Assembly: GCA_016182205.1 (NCBI GenBank)
Contig: JACOXW010000012.1
Span: 1-57,104, forward strand
Reading direction: 5' to 3'
Source: Candidatus Levyibacteriota bacterium
GTDB lineage: Bacteria > Patescibacteriota > Microgenomatia > Levybacterales > UBA12049
DNA: 57,104 bases
Below, piece after piece: positions 3,519 through 20,572 of this stretch; position 1 is the stretch's first letter, and every line of letters starts with the position of its first letter. The notes beneath the pieces are model-generated. The model had not been told where the DNA came from and searched no databases. It worked only from the letters and a program-made list of their open reading frames with translations. The translations under genes and the position numbers were made by a program.

Positions 3519-4583
3519 ATGTCACTCTCAACTGTCCAGGTTCTTTTGACACTCTGTGGTTTTATCGCCATCTTGTATTTTATCAATAGAAAACTTTCTT
3601 CTTTACAGAAACCGCAAGATACTCAAACACTCCTTGAATGGCTCAAAACTATGCAGCAATCTCTAGAAGTAACAAATAAAACTCTCAACGAAGCCATGCG
3701 AACAAATTCTTCAGATATGGTAAAGACTCTTCAGGAAAACTCAAAGCAGTTAAATGACCGCTTGGATAAAGCAGCATCAGTAATTCATAATGTTGGCAAA
3801 GAAGTAGGACAAATGAGTGAAATCGGAAGAAGCATGAAAGAATTGCAGGACTTTTTGAAAAGCCCAAAACTTCGTGGAAATATCGGTGAGCAGGTACTCA
3901 AAGATTTGATAGCACAAATGTTCCCGAAAAACAGTTTTCATCTGCAATACCAGTTCAAATCGGGTGAAAAAGTCGACGCTGCCATAAAAACCGATGCCGG
4001 TATTTTACCGATTGATTCCAAATTTCCCATGGAAAACTATCAAAGACTTATGAAATCGCAAACATCAACCGATGAGTATTCTGTTTTGCAAAAAGAATTT
4101 ATTAAAGATATAAAAAAACACATTGATACTATTTCTAAAAAATATATTTTACCCTTGGAAGGTACCATGGATTTTGCTCTCATGTATGTCCCAAGTGAAT
4201 CTGTGTATTACGAAGTAGTAAATCTTTCAGAACTTATGGATTACGCACGACGCAAAAGAGTTTATATTGTCTCCCCAACCACGCTCTACGCGCATTTACA
4301 AACCATTCTCTTGTCTTTCGAAGGAAAGAAAATTGAGAGCAAGTCAAAAGAGGTATTCAAACTGTTACGAACTCTGCAAATCGAATATGAAAAAGTCCAA
4401 GACAACATGAGTGTTTTAGGCAAACATATCGCCAACGCCTCATCACAATTTGTGAATGTTCAGACAGGCTTTGTCCAGATCGGCCAAAAACTCTCAACCA
4501 CCAAACAATTGGAAGAAAATGTTGTTGAATCTTTTGATGAAAAGACTGATTCCTCTTCCCAACAAACACTACCAATTAATTAG
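3519..4583 (+). CDS. rmuC: DNA recombination protein RmuC
   Basis: It has an N-terminal TM helix and a coiled-coil region. The conserved RmuC core is present: LRGNIGEQVL..., DAAIKTDAGILPIDSKFP, ALMYVPSESVYYE. Confidence 0.85.
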   Translation: MSLSTVQVLLTLCGFIAILYFINRKLSSLQKPQDTQTLLEWLKTMQQSLEVTNKTLNEAMRTNSSDMVKTLQENSKQLNDRLDKAASVIHNVGKEVGQMSEIGRSMKELQDFLKSPKLRGNIGEQVLKDLIAQMFPKNSFHLQYQFKSGEKVDAAIKTDAGILPIDSKFPMENYQRLMKSQTSTDEYSVLQKEFIKDIKKHIDTISKKYILPLEGTMDFALMYVPSESVYYEVVNLSELMDYARRKRVYIVSPTTLYAHLQTILLSFEGKKIESKSKEVFKLLRTLQIEYEKVQDNMSVLGKHIANASSQFVNVQTGFVQIGQKLSTTKQLEENVVESFDEKTDSSSQQTLPIN

Positions 4584-4598
4584 CCTCATCTTATAGTA

Positions 4599-4627
4599 TT
4601 GACAACTTTGGAATTCTGCTGTATTAT
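4599..4627 (+). promoter_or_regulatory. sigma-70 type promoter TTGACA-N17-TATTAT driving the T-box leader
   Basis: TTGACA at 4599-4604, a 17-nt spacer, then TATTAT at 4622-4627. Confidence 0.65.
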
Positions 4628-4648
4628 TATGTATAACAAGTTAATCGT

Positions 4649-4974
4649 GCGTTGAGGAAGAAGAGTAGGTAAAAGAGACGATTACAGCAAATGGTGACAG
4701 CTGAGAGCACCAGAATCAACCTTCTATCGAACAGAGCTTTCTCGCCCTGAACAATTGATCGCAATTTTTCAGGGTAAACACAGAACCGAAGAAATGCTGA
4801 GAGAAGTCGAAGCAAAGTAGGTTCATAAAAGAGTTAATTGATACTCTGTCAAGGCTGATACAGAGCTTTTTTTGCGCCTATTTTTGGCGGATCAATTTAG
4901 AAACAAGGTGGCACCGTCCGCAAGGGCCCTTGTAAGTTTCCAAAGAAATTTGGGAGTTTACAAGGGCTTTTTTT
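4649..4974 (+). promoter_or_regulatory. T-box riboswitch leader (Stem I with specifier loop, Stem II, Stem III, antiterminator/terminator)
   Basis: The Stem I 5' strand GAGGAAG-AAGAGUA (4654-4667) is almost identical to the glyQS leader (GAGAAGAAGAGUA). An AG-bulge AGAGA lies at 4674-4678 and a distal loop UGGUGA at 4692-4697. The specifier-loop 3' strand is GAACAGAG (4729-4736). It is closed by CUUUCUC (4737-4743) pairing with 4654-4660. The T-box/antiterminator is ACAAGG-UGGCACC-GUCC-GCAA-GGGC-CCUUGU (4903-4933). The mutually exclusive terminator is at 4927-4974. Confidence 0.88.
4927..4974 (+). terminator. T-box expression-platform intrinsic terminator
   Basis: CCCUUGUAA (4927-4935) pairs with UUACAAGGG (4958-4966) and is followed by C plus U7 (4968-4974). 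The 5' arm overlaps the 3' strand of the antiterminator. Confidence 0.8.
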
Positions 4975-4992
4975 GTTGGAAAAACAAACTAT

Positions 4993-5064
4993 GTGCCCGA
5001 AGCTCATCGGAATGAGCTCCCGCTTCTAACGGGAAGGCAACGGGTTCGACTCCCGTCGGGCACG
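4993..5064 (+). tRNA. tRNA-Arg, anticodon UCU, discriminator G, CCA not encoded
   Basis: Manual cloverleaf. Acceptor GTGCCCG/CGGGCAC. D arm GCTC-ATCGGAAT-GAGC. Anticodon arm TCCCG-CTTCTAA-CGGGA. Variable loop AGGCA. T arm ACGGG-TTCGACT-CCCGT. It closely resembles bacterial tRNA-Arg(UCU). Confidence 0.82.
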
Positions 5065-5082
5065 CAGGGAAAGGAATACATT

Positions 5083-6168
5083 ATGATAAATCTTGATACA
5101 TATACTGTTTCCCGATCACAAATCATGCACAATGAGGGAGTATGGCATGAAAAAGAAAATACAATAGATTCTCTAAGAGAAAAATTTCGTACTGATTTAG
5201 AAGCTGTTGCTCCAGATCTACGAAGTAATAATTTAAGCCAGCAATATACAACAACTTTATTTGAAAAACTTGTACATGCCGGAGCGGAAACGCAAGATGA
5301 TATCAAAACTGCCGGAACCATAGAATATTATCGAATAGGACGAGATGTCTTGGGGCCGCTTGCGGTAAGTTTTGTCGATAACGTACTAAAACAAAGTGAA
5401 GGCAACATATTATTCCCTGCTCGTGACGCAACACCGCTTTTTTATATAGCGCATACACTTATCGCGCAAGCTCCCGATCGATATCCTACATCAGCACATA
5501 GATTACAAAATCCAGTTTTCAATCGGAAGTTGTGGGGTGTTGATGATGAACAAGATCCAGAACAAGAAGTACTAAAGGTAACAGATCCTACAGTTTTGAA
5601 ACTTCTCAAGCAAATGGGCTTTGGAAGAGATGAACCAGTAACATTTATAGAAATTGGCTGCTGGGGAACGATGATAGACCAACTTAAGCAGGCGATGGAA
5701 CGGGCAGAAATGCCAGAGCAATCATTTTCTGTACATTTCCTATTTACTCACTTACCTGAATATATATCAGGATATATAAATAAATATGGAACTGATATTC
5801 CTAAAGCAACACTCGAAACAATAGCGGACACATGGGAAGCAGTTCCAAAGCCATTCAAACGTCCGGCAAAACTTGTAGAAATTGACGGAATTATAAAAGC
5901 TTCTTCGGCAGGAAGTATTGTTAATTCTCCTTTCCTTAAACCATGGTCACACGCAGTACACGAAGGTGTTATGGATGCAGCAAAGGATTTTCTACTACAA
6001 GGAAAGGGCGTGGTAGTAAAAGATGAAATATTACGTCTTTTGAAACTTTCAAACCAAGCAAAACAAGGAATATTTACCGGCATACTCCCATGGCACACAG
6101 AAACATGGTCCGAAGGGGATATATGGAAGAAAAACTGGAAATGGGGAAAAATTCCACCAAAAACCTAA
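5083..6168 (+). CDS. hypothetical protein (361 aa), no recognisable domain
   Basis: The long ORF is trimmed to the first ATG after the tRNA, preceded by GGGAAAGGA (SD) 8 nt upstream. I could recognise no family motif. Confidence 0.7.
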   Translation: MINLDTYTVSRSQIMHNEGVWHEKENTIDSLREKFRTDLEAVAPDLRSNNLSQQYTTTLFEKLVHAGAETQDDIKTAGTIEYYRIGRDVLGPLAVSFVDNVLKQSEGNILFPARDATPLFYIAHTLIAQAPDRYPTSAHRLQNPVFNRKLWGVDDEQDPEQEVLKVTDPTVLKLLKQMGFGRDEPVTFIEIGCWGTMIDQLKQAMERAEMPEQSFSVHFLFTHLPEYISGYINKYGTDIPKATLETIADTWEAVPKPFKRPAKLVEIDGIIKASSAGSIVNSPFLKPWSHAVHEGVMDAAKDFLLQGKGVVVKDEILRLLKLSNQAKQGIFTGILPWHTETWSEGDIWKKNWKWGKIPPKT

Positions 6169-6170
6169 TT

Positions 6171-6974
6171 ATGTTTAACCAACTTTTTAAACCGAAAAAA
6201 ACGATGATTGGTATGATTCATCTACCAGCCTTACCTGGGTATCCAAAACACACAGGAATGGATGATGTAATTCAAAAAGCGCTTTCAGATTTAAACACAT
6301 TACAAAAAGCAGGTTTTGATGGAATACTTGTTGAAAATGATAATGATCAACCACATCAAATTGGCGTTTCAAAAACAATTAGCAACGCATTTACAAAAGT
6401 AATGGAACAAATTTGCAGAAATGCAACGATACCTGTAGGTATGGAAATTATTTACGACATGCTCGAAACAATTAGAGTAGCTCATAAGGTAAGAGCAGAT
6501 TTTGTACGTCTTGATGTATTTGTAGACTCTGTTGAAACTGAATGGGGGAAAATTACAGCACAACCAAAAGAGATTGTAGAACTCAAAAAAAAACTTGGTG
6601 CTGATAACCTAGTTTTATTAACAGATATTCAAGTCAAGCATGCAAAAATGCTTCAGGAAAAAACAATAGCTGCCTCTACTCAAGAAGCAATTGAAAATGG
6701 ATCTGACGCTTTAATTGTAACAGGAGATTGGACGGGACATGCTCCTTCTATTTCTGATTGCAAAAGTATTAATAACTTCGCAAGTAATTTCCCCCTCCTT
6801 ATAGGAAGTGGCTTTAATATTTATAATTCTAAAGCTCTTTTACAATATGCTGATGGAGCAATTGTCGGTACATCTATAAAGACCGGTGAGTATGTAGATT
6901 TCACCAAGGCGAAAAAACTGATTAATAGTGTTAGAAACCTAAAGAGAAATGATAATAGATTTAATATCCGGTGA
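6171..6974 (+). CDS. BtpA/SgcQ-family TIM-barrel protein
   Basis: MIGMIHLPALPGYP...GFDGILVENDNDQP matches the BtpA-family N-terminal signature. The ATG lies 2 nt after the upstream stop. Confidence 0.78.
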   Translation: MFNQLFKPKKTMIGMIHLPALPGYPKHTGMDDVIQKALSDLNTLQKAGFDGILVENDNDQPHQIGVSKTISNAFTKVMEQICRNATIPVGMEIIYDMLETIRVAHKVRADFVRLDVFVDSVETEWGKITAQPKEIVELKKKLGADNLVLLTDIQVKHAKMLQEKTIAASTQEAIENGSDALIVTGDWTGHAPSISDCKSINNFASNFPLLIGSGFNIYNSKALLQYADGAIVGTSIKTGEYVDFTKAKKLINSVRNLKRNDNRFNIR

Positions 6975-7701
6975 AGTTTTCGCGGCGGATTTGATCTTTT
7001 AAAACACCAAGAGATGTAACTATTTGGTTCATAGCTTCAGCCATAGCAGGCGGTCCCACAATGTAAAATAGACAATCAAGCGATTTTTGGATGTATTTTT
7101 TAATCATCTCTTCTGAAATACGGCCTGTTTCACCATTCCATGGTTTTTCTGACTCTTGGGGACGAGTAATTGTATAGACAATTTTTATAGCTGGGTTTTC
7201 TCTTTCTGCGTTGGTGACTTCTTCCAGACCAACCATCTCTTCCGTTGTAGAAAATGAGGCAAAAAGAGTAATAGGAATTGAAAGTTTTTTTTCGGCAGCA
7301 TACGGCACCATACTTAAAAAAGGCGTTATTCCGATTCCTCCTGAGAGGAACACATGAGGCATTGTTTCGTTTTCCAAAAGCACAAACCTTCCAAGCGGTC
7401 CGAAAAATTGTACCGGTGTTCCTTCAGAAAGATTAAATAATGTTTTTTTAAATGTGCTTTTGATAATTCGAGTAATGATACGAAGCGTATTTGTTTTTAA
7501 TGGAGAACAGGCTATTGAGAAAAATCGTGAAGTCCCGCGCTCATCAGCATTTTCGTGAGGTAAAGTCATACGAATATACTGCCCGGGAAGAAATGAAAAA
7601 GGCACAGAAGAAAGGTCAAAAGAAAATGCATGTGCATCTTTTGCTACCTGCTCTTTCCGTAAAAAAGGGAGAGAAAATGGAAAAGGCGCGTTATTTGTCA
7701 T
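6961..7701 (-). CDS. ferredoxin-reductase-type FAD/NAD(P)-binding oxidoreductase
   Basis: RFFSIACSP (the RxYS-like FAD motif) and LSGGIGITPFLSM (the NAD(P) GGxGxxP motif). It overlaps the 3' end of the BtpA-like gene convergently by 14 nt. Confidence 0.8.
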   Translation of the reverse strand: MTNNAPFPFSLPFLRKEQVAKDAHAFSFDLSSVPFSFLPGQYIRMTLPHENADERGTSRFFSIACSPLKTNTLRIITRIIKSTFKKTLFNLSEGTPVQFFGPLGRFVLLENETMPHVFLSGGIGITPFLSMVPYAAEKKLSIPITLFASFSTTEEMVGLEEVTNAERENPAIKIVYTITRPQESEKPWNGETGRISEEMIKKYIQKSLDCLFYIVGPPAMAEAMNQIVTSLGVLKDQIRRENFTGY

Positions 7702-19534: not shown

Positions 19535-20572
19535 TTAATCTTTATAAATTTTTTCTCCATCCAGCTCATCTTCAATATGATAGCCATTTTCATGAAACTG
19601 TTGTCGTATCGCATCAGCTTTTACAAAATCTTTTTGTGTTTTTGCCAATCGTCTTTTTTCAAGTAATGTTTGTAAAACTTCTGGAAGATCATTTTGTGCA
19701 ATATGTTCATGTACCTCTTTTTCATGTTTGAAAATATTTTGTAATGTTTTTTTTGATGGAATCATTTGCATTTTTTTAATCGAATCAAACATATACGTTT
19801 TTCCTTGTTCAAGTGTAACTGTTTTTTCATTTTGCAGAATATGAACAGAACCGACGCCTTCAACGGAGAAAATATCTTGCTGGAAATCAAAAATAATTGC
19901 TGTCTGTTCGTCAATACCAAGAACTTTTGCTTCTTTTGGAAGCATGGCACGCAATCTTCCAAACCGCTCTTCTCCCATATAGCAATATCGTGTATCAAGT
20001 CCTTCTCCACCTTCATGATTATTCCAATGAGTAACAACAGAAATAGGAAGACCAAATTCTGTCAAAACATTTAGACCTTTCTCCCAATATAAATCCGCCC
20101 CTGCTTTATATATTTCATAAACTGGGAGGGCGAACTCGCCAAATGAAATGGCAGCAGCACTGGAGAGTGCCAACGTTGCCCCAACCTTGAATCTCTCAAC
20201 AATAGCCGTTAAGGCTTTTGAGTTTTTAAGTATCCTAACTGTATATGTAGGACTACCTGGACCTAAGAATATGTAATCTGCGGTAGCAACTGGAGTCAGA
20301 AGAGTTGTGTTGTCTGGACTGAATTCTGATCCTTTTCTTCTTGCCGGAATAATTGATACATTTTTTGTAAATTCCGCAAGCGAATGATGAAAAACATCGG
20401 CAATATCACAAGCTACCAATGCTGAGTTGGGTTGGAAACCTGCGGGAGTCTCTAGAATAACGATATTTTGTTTTTTTGATACTGTTTTAAGAACTTTTCT
20501 GTGGATCTTTCTTCCAGTTGGTGATGTCTCACCTGACCCAAATAAGACTAATTTACCGAAAGGAGATTGCAT
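19535..20572 (-). CDS. hypothetical protein: peptidase-S51/class-I amidotransferase-like N-terminal region plus CysS/YqeB-type C-terminal domain
   Basis: The N-terminal VLFGSGETSPTG...IFLGPGSPTY weakly resembles the S51 fold. The C-terminal LLEKRRLAKTQKDFVKADAIRQQFHENGYHIEDELDGEKI matches the conserved C-terminal domain of cysteinyl-tRNA synthetase. Confidence 0.6.
   Translation of the reverse strand: MQSPFGKLVLFGSGETSPTGRKIHRKVLKTVSKKQNIVILETPAGFQPNSALVACDIADVFHHSLAEFTKNVSIIPARRKGSEFSPDNTTLLTPVATADYIFLGPGSPTYTVRILKNSKALTAIVERFKVGATLALSSAAAISFGEFALPVYEIYKAGADLYWEKGLNVLTEFGLPISVVTHWNNHEGGEGLDTRYCYMGEERFGRLRAMLPKEAKVLGIDEQTAIIFDFQQDIFSVEGVGSVHILQNEKTVTLEQGKTYMFDSIKKMQMIPSKKTLQNIFKHEKEVHEHIAQNDLPEVLQTLLEKRRLAKTQKDFVKADAIRQQFHENGYHIEDELDGEKIYKD

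Follow-up and report, generated by a model that had tools for sequence, protein, structure and literature searches.

Can a T-box riboswitch control the gene of the very tRNA that it senses? The question is raised by a stretch of 57,104 nucleotides (nt) from a Candidatus Levyibacteriota bacterium (GenBank assembly GCA_016182205.1, contig JACOXW010000012.1), in which a T-box leader is followed by a gene for tRNA-Arg(UCU) and then by two protein-coding genes, the open reading frame (ORF) ORF361 and a gene of the BtpA family. This whole 57-kb stretch is referred to as the window; the evidence throughout is computational, and all statements on genome content apply within the window. An earlier note, made from the sequence alone, had described the leader, predicted its tRNA ligand and proposed that the T-box gates the gene of that ligand. 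Our analysis supports, with a probability of roughly 0.73, an arginine-specific transcriptional T-box attenuator that controls a three-gene unit: tRNA-Arg(UCU), ORF361 and the BtpA-family gene. The tRNA gene thus keeps its place in the proposed unit but is not alone there, as the unit continues through both protein-coding genes.

The leader and its predicted ligand

The elements of the unit are listed below by their positions in the window. Loci used for comparison carry L numbers.

4599..4627, + strand: sigma-70-type promoter TTGACA-17-TATTAT, 11 of 12 consensus positions matched; predicted start at about 4634-4636
4643..4934, + strand: T-box leader, Stem I through antiterminator, by alignment to Rfam RF00230
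4654..4743, + strand: Stem I, base helix GAGGAAG/CUUUCUC
4733..4735, + strand: specifier codon AGA (arginine), then the purine G4736, by model alignment and the TBDB rule
4744..4775, + strand: extra hairpin GCCCUGAA...UUUCAGGGU after Stem I, by alignment A2 and folding
4844..4873, + strand: mid-leader hairpin CUCUGU-N10-ACAGAG, then C and U7, kept in L001 and L011
4903..4933, + strand: antiterminator, helix ACAAGG/CCUUGU, bulge UGGCACC, helix GUCC/GGGC
4923..4974, + strand: intrinsic terminator with a stem of about 20 bp (4923-4970) and a U7 tract (4968-4974)
4993..5065, + strand: tRNA-Arg(UCU), G73, CCA not encoded, by ARAGORN and Rfam
5083..6168, + strand: ORF361, 361 amino acids (aa), restricted to the candidate phyla radiation (CPR), with the ribosome-binding site GGAAAGGA just upstream of its ATG
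6171..6974, + strand: BtpA/SgcQ-family gene; mechanical ORF from 6090, in-frame ATG at 6171

The promoter lies where the earlier note had placed it, and no other site on the + strand from 4200 to 5296 resembles one. The upstream gene, rmuC, ends at 4583, and the leader unit fills the space between rmuC and ORF361. Downstream of the promoter, the standard scan detected no promoter-like site on the + strand from 4628 to 5296, and a looser custom scan detected none before the tRNA; a separate tRNA promoter, which the earlier note had also failed to see, was therefore rejected. Consequently, transcription of ORF361 and the BtpA-family gene must cross the T-box and the tRNA, and tRNA-Arg(UCU) would be made solely via T-box read-through. 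The intervals are 18 nt from terminator to tRNA, 17 nt from tRNA to the ORF361 ATG and 3 nt from the ORF361 stop to the BtpA ATG, and the gene after the BtpA-family gene converges from the opposite strand. Equally good promoters precede the orthologous leaders of L001 (TTGACA-17-TACAAT) and L008 (TTGACA-17-TATAAT).

The full RF00230 model (positions 1-219) aligns to 4643-4934 with 42.0 bits (E = 6.7e-8 in a 651-nt local search). The leader, about 340 nt between the promoter and the tRNA unit, is homologous to a Levybacteria leader (L001) that itself scores 83.7 bits. Its description as a complete T-box stands insofar as the whole model aligns; it needs tempering in that the leader is divergent, scores below threshold and contains the extra hairpin at 4744-4775 (-15.6 kcal/mol), which is lineage-specific: alignment A2 shows it in none of its five other leaders. 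The base helix of Stem I, formed by GAGGAAG (4654-4660) and CUUUCUC (4737-4743), is the one expected beside the specifier. The specifier loop, with AAGAGUA (4661-4667) on its 5' side and GAACAGAG (4729-4736) on its 3' side, has both S-turn motifs (AGUA and GAA, respectively), and codon and purine adjoin the helix. The covariance model sets GAA-C-AGA-G (4729-4736) against its consensus 'GAAauuca' and so places AGA, as proposed, in the codon slot. Counted back from the 3' end of the specifier bulge, AGA also takes up nucleotides 2-4, the position that TBDB ranks first (PMC7778990). Elsewhere the slot holds AGA (L001, L066, both with another base than the window just before it), CGA (L011, L087) or CGC (L084). 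In distal Stem I, a compensatory change separates the window from L001 (UGGUG/CACCA versus UGAUG/CAUCA), and ACAGCAA and GACAGCUGAGAGC, both kept in L001, align with high posterior probability to the distal platform motifs and may form the AG bulge and distal loop with which a T-box docks the tRNA elbow.

Further along the leader, a hairpin at 4844-4865 has the loop UCAAGGCUGAUA; the window, L001 and L011 share the loop UCAAGGYUKAYA, and L087 retains it with a covarying stem and without the U-run. The mid-leader hairpin (4844-4873) may take the place of Stem II, Stem IIA/B or Stem III. Together with the C and U7 that follow, it resembles a weak premature terminator; the U-run could instead pair with AAAAGAG (4806-4812).

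The T-box sequence AAACAAGGUGGCACCGUCC folds as an antiterminator at 4903-4933 (-9.5 kcal/mol) with a 7-nt bulge, UGGCACC, at 4909-4915. The terminator folds with -27.8 to -32.9 kcal/mol (z = -4.68), a stability reached by none of 200 shuffles, and its 5' arm overlaps the antiterminator's 3' arm, making the two folds mutually exclusive. The predicted energies correspond to the usual T-box balance, in which the antiterminator would be favourable only upon tRNA binding. From the UGGC of the bulge (4909-4912), the earlier note had predicted a tRNA ending in GCCA and had identified it with the tRNA-Arg(UCU) gene 18 nt past the terminator; ARAGORN and Rfam agree on this tRNA, and both its anticodon and its discriminator, G73, match. 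The stretch described in the note ended at 5064, one base short of the discriminator, as the tRNA ends at 5065.

This tRNA scores 49.4 bits with RF00005 (gathering score 29). All 7 of 7 acceptor-stem pairs form, nothing is unusual in the anticodon loop (CUUCUAA) or the T-loop, and a Dojkabacteria tRNA-Arg(UCU) (L066) has an identical acceptor stem and likewise G73. AGA is the commonest arginine codon of the window (195 of 559 arginine codons in 28 genes, 35%), so tRNA-Arg(UCU) is not a rare-codon accessory.

From the elements, their homology and covariation and the recurrence of the layout, which sequence comparison establishes, we infer tRNA binding, dependence on read-through, processing and CCA addition as follows. 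RNA polymerase would start at the 4599-4627 promoter and make the leader of about 340 nt. The anticodon of an uncharged tRNA-Arg(UCU) would pair with the AGA of the Stem I specifier loop and its 3' GCCA with the antiterminator UGGC. This would help the antiterminator, weak at -9.5 kcal/mol, to prevail over a terminator that is much stronger (about -28 to -33 kcal/mol), and polymerase would read through into the tRNA gene, which begins after 18 nt, and then into both ORFs. A charged tRNA would make no acceptor-end contact, and transcription would stop at U4968-4974. RNase P and a 3' endonuclease would free the tRNA, CCA would be added, and the leader would thereby be detached from the ORF361 mRNA. 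The result would be a positive loop: the uncharged form of tRNA-Arg(UCU) would raise the synthesis of this tRNA and of arginine-linked proteins. As to a physiological benefit, we can only speculate: the tRNA may be co-dosed with its synthetase or pathway, the response to starvation may become sharper or hysteretic, or the tRNA may provide a defined processing site at which leader and mRNA are separated.

Recurrence of T-boxes ahead of cognate tRNA genes

The match of codon and discriminator is not independent evidence of coupling, because any AGA T-box matches the tRNA-Arg(UCU) of its genome wherever that gene is located. What does inform is that switch and tRNA gene are adjacent and that this adjacency recurs. 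Taking a single genome for each of 185,579 species, we searched for the T-box core GGTGGNACC followed by 28-58 nt, TTTTT, 50-80 nt and the tRNA T-loop GGTTCRANTCC, and at least 120 stretches matched. Among the matches listed, 77 had the T-loop inside an ARAGORN tRNA and the T-box core outside any tRNA. About 40 of these 77 showed a canonical T-box context, and 37 were examined in detail; L042 (Gottesmanbacteria), L062 (Shapirobacteria) and L148, a second contig of the metagenome-assembled genome (MAG) of L034, were added to them. Pattern matches in odd contexts (L073, L082, L089, L101, L102, L131 and about 35 others) had no T-box and were discarded as chance matches.

At least 40 further T-box-then-tRNA loci were thus recovered: in 40 the tRNA is the cognate one, in one it is unassigned (L095) and in none is it non-cognate. 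Among the matches listed, the hosts are CPR bacteria and reduced-genome Bacilli and Mollicutes, and the amino acids are Asn, Phe, Tyr, Trp and Arg. Scores against RF00230, specifiers and tRNAs of representative loci are as follows.

L077, Mollicutes: 144.3 bits; specifier AAC, tRNA-Asn(GUU)
L046, Bacilli: 141.4 bits; specifier AAC, tRNA-Asn(GUU)
L034, Bacilli: 132.5 bits
L113, Bacilli: 123.6 and 113.4 bits (two T-boxes); specifier AAC, tRNA-Asn(GUU)
L109, Onthoplasma: 105.1 bits; specifier UUC, tRNA-Phe(GAA)
L087, MAG labelled Gammaproteobacteria: 89.4 bits; specifier CGA, tRNA-Arg(UCG)
L097, Saccharibacteria: 82.4 bits; specifier UAC, tRNA-Tyr(GUA)
L066, Dojkabacteria: 80.3 bits; specifier AGA, tRNA-Arg(UCU)
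L084, Saccharibacteria: 73.4 bits; specifier CGC, tRNA-Arg(GCG)

The pairings of AAC with tRNA-Asn(GUU) and of UUC with tRNA-Phe(GAA) occur in other loci as well, as does that of UAC with tRNA-Tyr(GUA), in L042 and others. Of 37 leaders, 27 yielded the cognate codon in a simple context search (chance level 0.23). The leaders that it missed, among them most Tyr and Trp ones, escaped because the codon lies in the loop of a short Stem I or before a pyrimidine, and they were resolved by inspection.

Covariation at the acceptor end points the same way, and the test by synteny and covariation that the earlier note had suggested has a strongly positive outcome. UGGN pairs with the discriminator in all 37 loci tested; with the window included, 29 of the 38 pairings are Watson-Crick, 9 are G.U wobbles and none is a mismatch, the Watson-Crick pairing of L144 being reached only via the second tRNA of its cluster. 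The bulge switches together with the discriminator within one amino acid: for Trp, L129 has UGGC/G73 and the other loci UGGU/A73; for Arg, the window, L066, L084 and L087 have UGGC/G73 and L055 has UGGU/A73. The AGA/UGGC leader of L066 fits only the first of three tRNA-Arg genes (UCU, G73), as in the window. Not all loci are independent, since those of the Asn group are closely related; as they nevertheless cover five amino acids, two architectures of Stem I and two phyla distant from each other, they imply many independent instances.

Examining the arrangement of these loci revealed that the tRNA 5' end lies 0-22 nt behind the terminator T-run. A credible promoter in this gap was found only in L066 and L084 (TTTATG-17-TATAAT), with weak ones in L109 and L134. 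In most loci an ORF that fits the amino acid starts within 2-120 nt after the tRNA. Pfam identified ArgRS in L066, a Lyase_1-family protein, read as ArgH-like, in L055, TyrRS in L097, PheS/PheRS in L081 and L109 and GatC in L088; from the translations we recognised by eye PheS (L059, L128), GatC (L044, L113), GatA (L048, L077) and AspRS (L111). At least two tRNA genes are present in 11 of the 14 itemised Asn loci. A terminator directly follows the tRNA cluster in L044, L077, L111, L141 and, weakly, L144, and in L113 (4325-5145, - strand) a T-box (AAC) precedes four tRNA-Asn genes, which are followed by a second T-box (AAC) and gatC. These terminators and the bracketed array indicate that tRNA genes can be the sole cargo of a T-box, which weighs against the tRNA being a mere passenger.

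The loci invite a broader statement, on which we consider the odds to be even: T-boxes would autoregulate the genes of their own ligand tRNAs as a widespread, undescribed class of targets in reduced-genome lineages (CPR/Patescibacteria, Mollicutes-like and other small gut Bacilli). Cognate Arg, Asn, Phe, Tyr or Trp tRNA genes would lie 0-22 nt behind the terminator, alone or before matching genes for aminoacyl-tRNA synthetases or pathway enzymes, and their supply would be set by a positive loop on the charging state, with the major Arg isoacceptor of the window expressed solely via the gate.

Several of these loci have peculiarities of their own. In the unassigned locus L095 (2964-3278, - strand), from a Ruminococcus MAG, a 91.7-bit T-box with GCU-A in the specifier slot precedes a 95-nt tRNA-like gene with normal acceptor, D and T arms and a greatly enlarged anticodon arm, to which ARAGORN gave no assignment. 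L042 has an extra tRNA-like element, GCUGGGG...GGUUCGAGUCCUCCCCCUAGCA, at about 4335-4420 (- strand), between the Tyr T-box terminator and tRNA-Tyr(GUA). Bacterial tRNA-Tyr usually has a long variable arm; the CPR tRNA-Tyr genes of L056, L123, L137, L138 and L062 are just 73-75 nt and lack it. In L097, tRNA-Tyr is accompanied by a synthetase gene of class I (W and Y). MAGs labelled Gammaproteobacteria or Pseudomonadales (L055, L056, L063, L087, L106, L123, L130) contain CPR-style short-Stem-I T-boxes and CPR-like tRNAs, and the taxonomic labels of these third-party annotation (TPA) assemblies may be wrong.

The arginine-linked operon and competing explanations

What else does the switch control? 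ORF361 had 45 relatives, none with a Pfam domain over the homologous region; the named ones belong to Levybacteria and the "Patescibacteria group". A BtpA gene, encoding a TIM-barrel protein (BtpA/SgcQ), directly follows the ORF361 homolog in every locus long enough to show it. T-boxes without a tRNA precede this gene pair in L001/L002 (83.7 bits), L008, L010, L011, L012/L015, L017 and L019, and their specifiers are those of arginine: AGA in L001, CGA in L011 and CGC, in a short Stem I loop, in L008, L010, L012, L017 and L019.

ORF361 relatives that lack a T-box have instead a short leader ORF with arginine codons near its end, followed by a terminator (L005, L006, L020, L021, L024, L025 and L027; L003 by inspection). 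These ORFs comprise 17-26 codons, with two to four arginine codons near the end. The encoded peptides include MNTKLTTRIIDTLRRRV in L005 and ...ARRSRS in L006, and a recurring ending is ...TLRRRV*, with the codons CGN AGG AGA. Their positions are as follows.

L005: 3876-3929
L006: 3864-3917
L020: from 68
L021: 1756-1818
L024: from 2207
L025: from 2264
L027: from 2217
L003: about 3848-3928

By its layout, the leader ORF with its terminator looks like a ribosome-mediated arginine attenuator. In L021 its ATG lies 8 nt after the -10 box, and leaderless-mRNA translation may apply there. The neighbours provide a third independent line of evidence that ties the pair to arginine. The pair adjoins argS in L005, together with arginine deiminase, and in L006/L007. 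Directly upstream of the attenuator and ORF361 homolog of L021 (38% identity), a promoter and four tRNA-Arg genes (UCG, CCG, UCU, GCG) occupy 1153-1592, an independent adjacency of tRNA-Arg and ORF361 with the tRNAs under their own promoter. We therefore flag the ORF361-BtpA pair as apparently linked to arginine by two independent regulatory mechanisms. Given the arginine T-boxes and attenuators of its relatives, the window can be described as an arginine-regulated operon with an embedded cognate tRNA. As orthologous T-boxes precede the pair without a tRNA, the protein genes are probably the older target of the arginine T-box, the cognate tRNA having been embedded later in the operon of the window.

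This history lends some substance to the view that the tRNA is only a passenger: the T-box would have been selected for ORF361-BtpA alone, the tRNA gene would have arrived in the 5' untranslated region by rearrangement, and its supply would be independent of the T-box, through an unrecognised promoter or another copy. The orthologous T-boxes that stand directly before ORF361 (L001, L008, L010, L011, L012, L017, L019), the lack of a tRNA at this place in about 25 other ORF361 loci and the internal promoters of L066 and L084, which show that such promoters are compatible with the T-box-then-tRNA layout, are what one would then expect. We nevertheless regard this view as unlikely. The embedded tRNA is the cognate one of the whole set, for which the prior chance is estimated at a few percent, assuming about 45 tRNA genes; cognate embedding recurs in the at least 40 other loci, across five amino acids and with gaps of 0-22 nt; and the window has no promoter-like site before its tRNA, while some units elsewhere consist of tRNA genes only.

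Several findings weigh against control of the tRNA by an arginine T-box and must be set beside this evidence. The score of 42.0 bits is less than half of the Rfam gathering score of 93, and a whole-window scan at gathering scores accordingly lists just two tRNAs and no T-box. Posterior probabilities in the RF00230 alignment are low, and insertions large, across the Stem II-Stem III region. Stem I alone folds no better than shuffles (z = 0.70), and its stability was for that reason not used as evidence. The tRNA is atypical: it carries A8 in place of the near-universal U8, which is present in five further CPR tRNA-Arg(UCU) genes and in the tRNA-Pro of the window, it lacks nucleotide 26, and it scores 49 bits, compared with 66-75 in other CPR tRNA-Arg(UCU). 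A tRNA stands between leader and ORF in none of about 25 other ORF361 loci, which leaves the layout of the window a singleton in its operon family, and tblastn found no ORF361 downstream of other T-box-then-tRNA-Arg loci. Finally, an essential tRNA under positive feedback would seem vulnerable without basal read-through or a second gene copy. Since T-box output needs uncharged tRNA, less total tRNA lowers its own synthesis, so one of the two must exist.

The atypical features could also mean that 4993-5065 is a specialised paralog, not the housekeeping decoder of AGA but a divergent regulatory ligand or a substrate of ORF361 or BtpA. A8, the missing nucleotide 26, the unencoded CCA and the low Rfam score would suit such a role, as would the repeated linkage of ORF361 to tRNA-Arg genes and argS. 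It is a less probable explanation than the passenger. Against it, the acceptor stem is fully paired (7 of 7) and, with G73, identical to that of the Dojkabacteria tRNA-Arg(UCU), the anticodon loop and T-loop are normal, and the embedded tRNAs of the other 40 loci look ordinary, with at least two tRNA genes in 11 of 14 itemised Asn loci.

The low leader score, in turn, could reflect decay, the leader being a relic that no longer switches and whose terminator is leaky or always bypassed. The 42 bits against 93, the lineage-specific 32-nt insertion and the degenerate state of the K-turn region in basal Stem I fit this idea, which we nonetheless hold to be very improbable: all decision elements are intact and mutually consistent (AGUA, GAA, codon plus purine, UGGCACC matching G73, overlapping arms), and low scores are general among CPR T-boxes, the CPR relatives ranging from 27.6 to 89.4 bits against 105-144 bits in Bacilli and Mollicutes with the same T-box-then-tRNA layout. 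That the specifier is CAG (Gln, read GAA-CAG-A-G) is scarcely credible and was rejected: the triplet is present one base upstream of AGA and tRNA-Gln often has G73, but the RF00230 alignment places AGA and not CAG in the slot, the shifted frame gives AAG (Lys) in L001 and L066, where AGA is kept, and the remaining lines (argS, arginine deiminase, tRNA-Arg neighbours and arginine leader peptides) indicate arginine.

With an arginine T-box acting on the whole three-gene unit as the favoured reading, the proteins themselves deserve a closer look. ORF361 had no Pfam or NCBIfam match and no significant sequence-profile match in PDB. Its confident AlphaFold2 model (predicted local distance difference test score, pLDDT, 86.9; predicted template modelling score, pTM, 0.87) best matched the capsule multienzyme of Haemophilus influenzae type b (8a0m and 8a0c; E = 5e-6, template modelling score, TM, 0.48), then the polysaccharide ribofuranosyltransferase 7shg and, more weakly, phosphoribosyltransferases. 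The model resembles those ribofuranosyltransferase/phosphatase modules, dependent on phosphoribosyl pyrophosphate (PRPP), that occur in capsule polymerases. The BtpA-family gene scores 195.7 bits with PF03437 (cut-off 30) and 195.2 bits with TIGR00259 (cut-off 153.4); against the photosystem-I equivalog NF045918 it reaches 151 where 400 is the cut-off. Its start at 6171 fits the lengths of its homologs, 244-276 aa. The operon of L001 and of L010 extends to genes for a PfkB-family kinase and a HAD-family phosphatase, gene content that suggests a sugar-phosphate chemistry under arginine control.

Known T-boxes and the surroundings of the unit

In the TBDB paper (PMC7778990) and in Wels et al. 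2008 (PMC2494555), T-boxes figure as sensors through which aminoacyl-tRNA synthetases and the synthesis and transport of amino acids are adjusted, and the tRNA counts as a signal from outside. The TBDB paper uses the term 'tRNA gene' only for pairing T-boxes with host tRNAs, never for a downstream target (PMC7778990), and the phrase is absent from Wels et al. 2008, which notes argS T-boxes (PMC2494555). In the literature that we searched for T-boxes upstream of tRNA genes, or T-boxes in Patescibacteria, no description was found, in line with the earlier note, which knew of no such architecture; a brief mention in older surveys (Vitreschak et al. 2008, Gutierrez-Preciado et al. 2009) is possible. 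We regard the mechanism of the window as that of an ordinary T-box, in which the cargo belongs to a new class and the circuit has a new topology.

Canonical transcriptional T-box leaders, such as those of Bacillus subtilis tyrS and glyQS, share with the window the S-turn specifier loop, the codon followed by a purine, the UGGN bulge and the competing antiterminator and terminator, in a switch that senses uncharged tRNA. The window differs from them in that its first downstream gene encodes the ligand tRNA rather than a synthetase, biosynthesis protein or transporter, and in that its Stem I-antiterminator region is divergent, with an extra hairpin and a score below gathering. In the E. coli thrU-tyrU-glyT-thrT-tufB operon, tRNA and mRNA are likewise co-transcribed, the tRNA genes lying upstream of a protein gene on one transcript and being released by processing; unlike the window, units of this type have no riboswitch, and their tRNAs are not ligands of their own leader. 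The arginine-codon leader ORF and terminator of the distant ORF361 orthologs are akin to the trp- and his-type leader-peptide transcription attenuators, a mechanism not used in the window, and provide, at the level of sequence, independent evidence that the operon responds to Arg-tRNA.

Actinobacterial ileS-type short-Stem-I T-boxes act on translation; the short forms of the CPR end in a terminator and are thus transcriptional, unlike that type. As in the ileS type (compare PMC11297988), the codon lies in the loop of a short hairpin in L008, L010, L012, L017, L019, L055, L056, L123, L129 and others, whereas the window has a long Stem I. The T-boxes of argS noted in Wels et al. 2008 (PMC2494555) and other arginine T-boxes resemble the window in their arginine-codon specifier and their control of Arg-tRNA supply, but, for argS, a tRNA gene between leader and argS is not part of that architecture. 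It is present in L066, where an AGA/UGGC T-box precedes three tRNA-Arg genes and argS, and the window has ORF361 and BtpA at the position of argS.

If such a switch also gates a tRNA gene, the ligand becomes the output of its own sensor. The charging circuit would then shift from simple negative homeostasis to positive feedback, which would make ultrasensitive or hysteretic responses and a coupling of tRNA and synthetase dosage possible, and the loci would show how minimal genomes with few transcription factors regulate single tRNA genes. An annotation of T-box targets that is limited to the next protein-coding gene would miss such tRNA genes. The at least 41 loci, the window included, provide material for in vitro antitermination tests, and the arginine link of the ORF361-BtpA pair is a usable lead to its function.

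The unit lies in a chromosomal setting. The window has a GC content of about 38% and the chromosomal gene content of a small-genome bacterium: profile scans identified TsaD, RmuC, RecA, RNase Y, EF-Tu and EF-G, and two ORFs, of 1,251 and 1,130 aa, have the size of RpoB and RpoC. A megablast search of positions 4000-7000 against 50,697 phage records gave no match, and with the chromosomal content of the window (recA, RNase Y, EF-Tu, EF-G and the rpoBC region) a phage source for the tRNA region was rejected. Elsewhere in the window, an ORF of 345 aa (19535-20572, - strand) is matched in part by a cyanophycinase-like sequence, and a stretch at its C-terminal end resembles the C-terminus of cysteinyl-tRNA synthetase.

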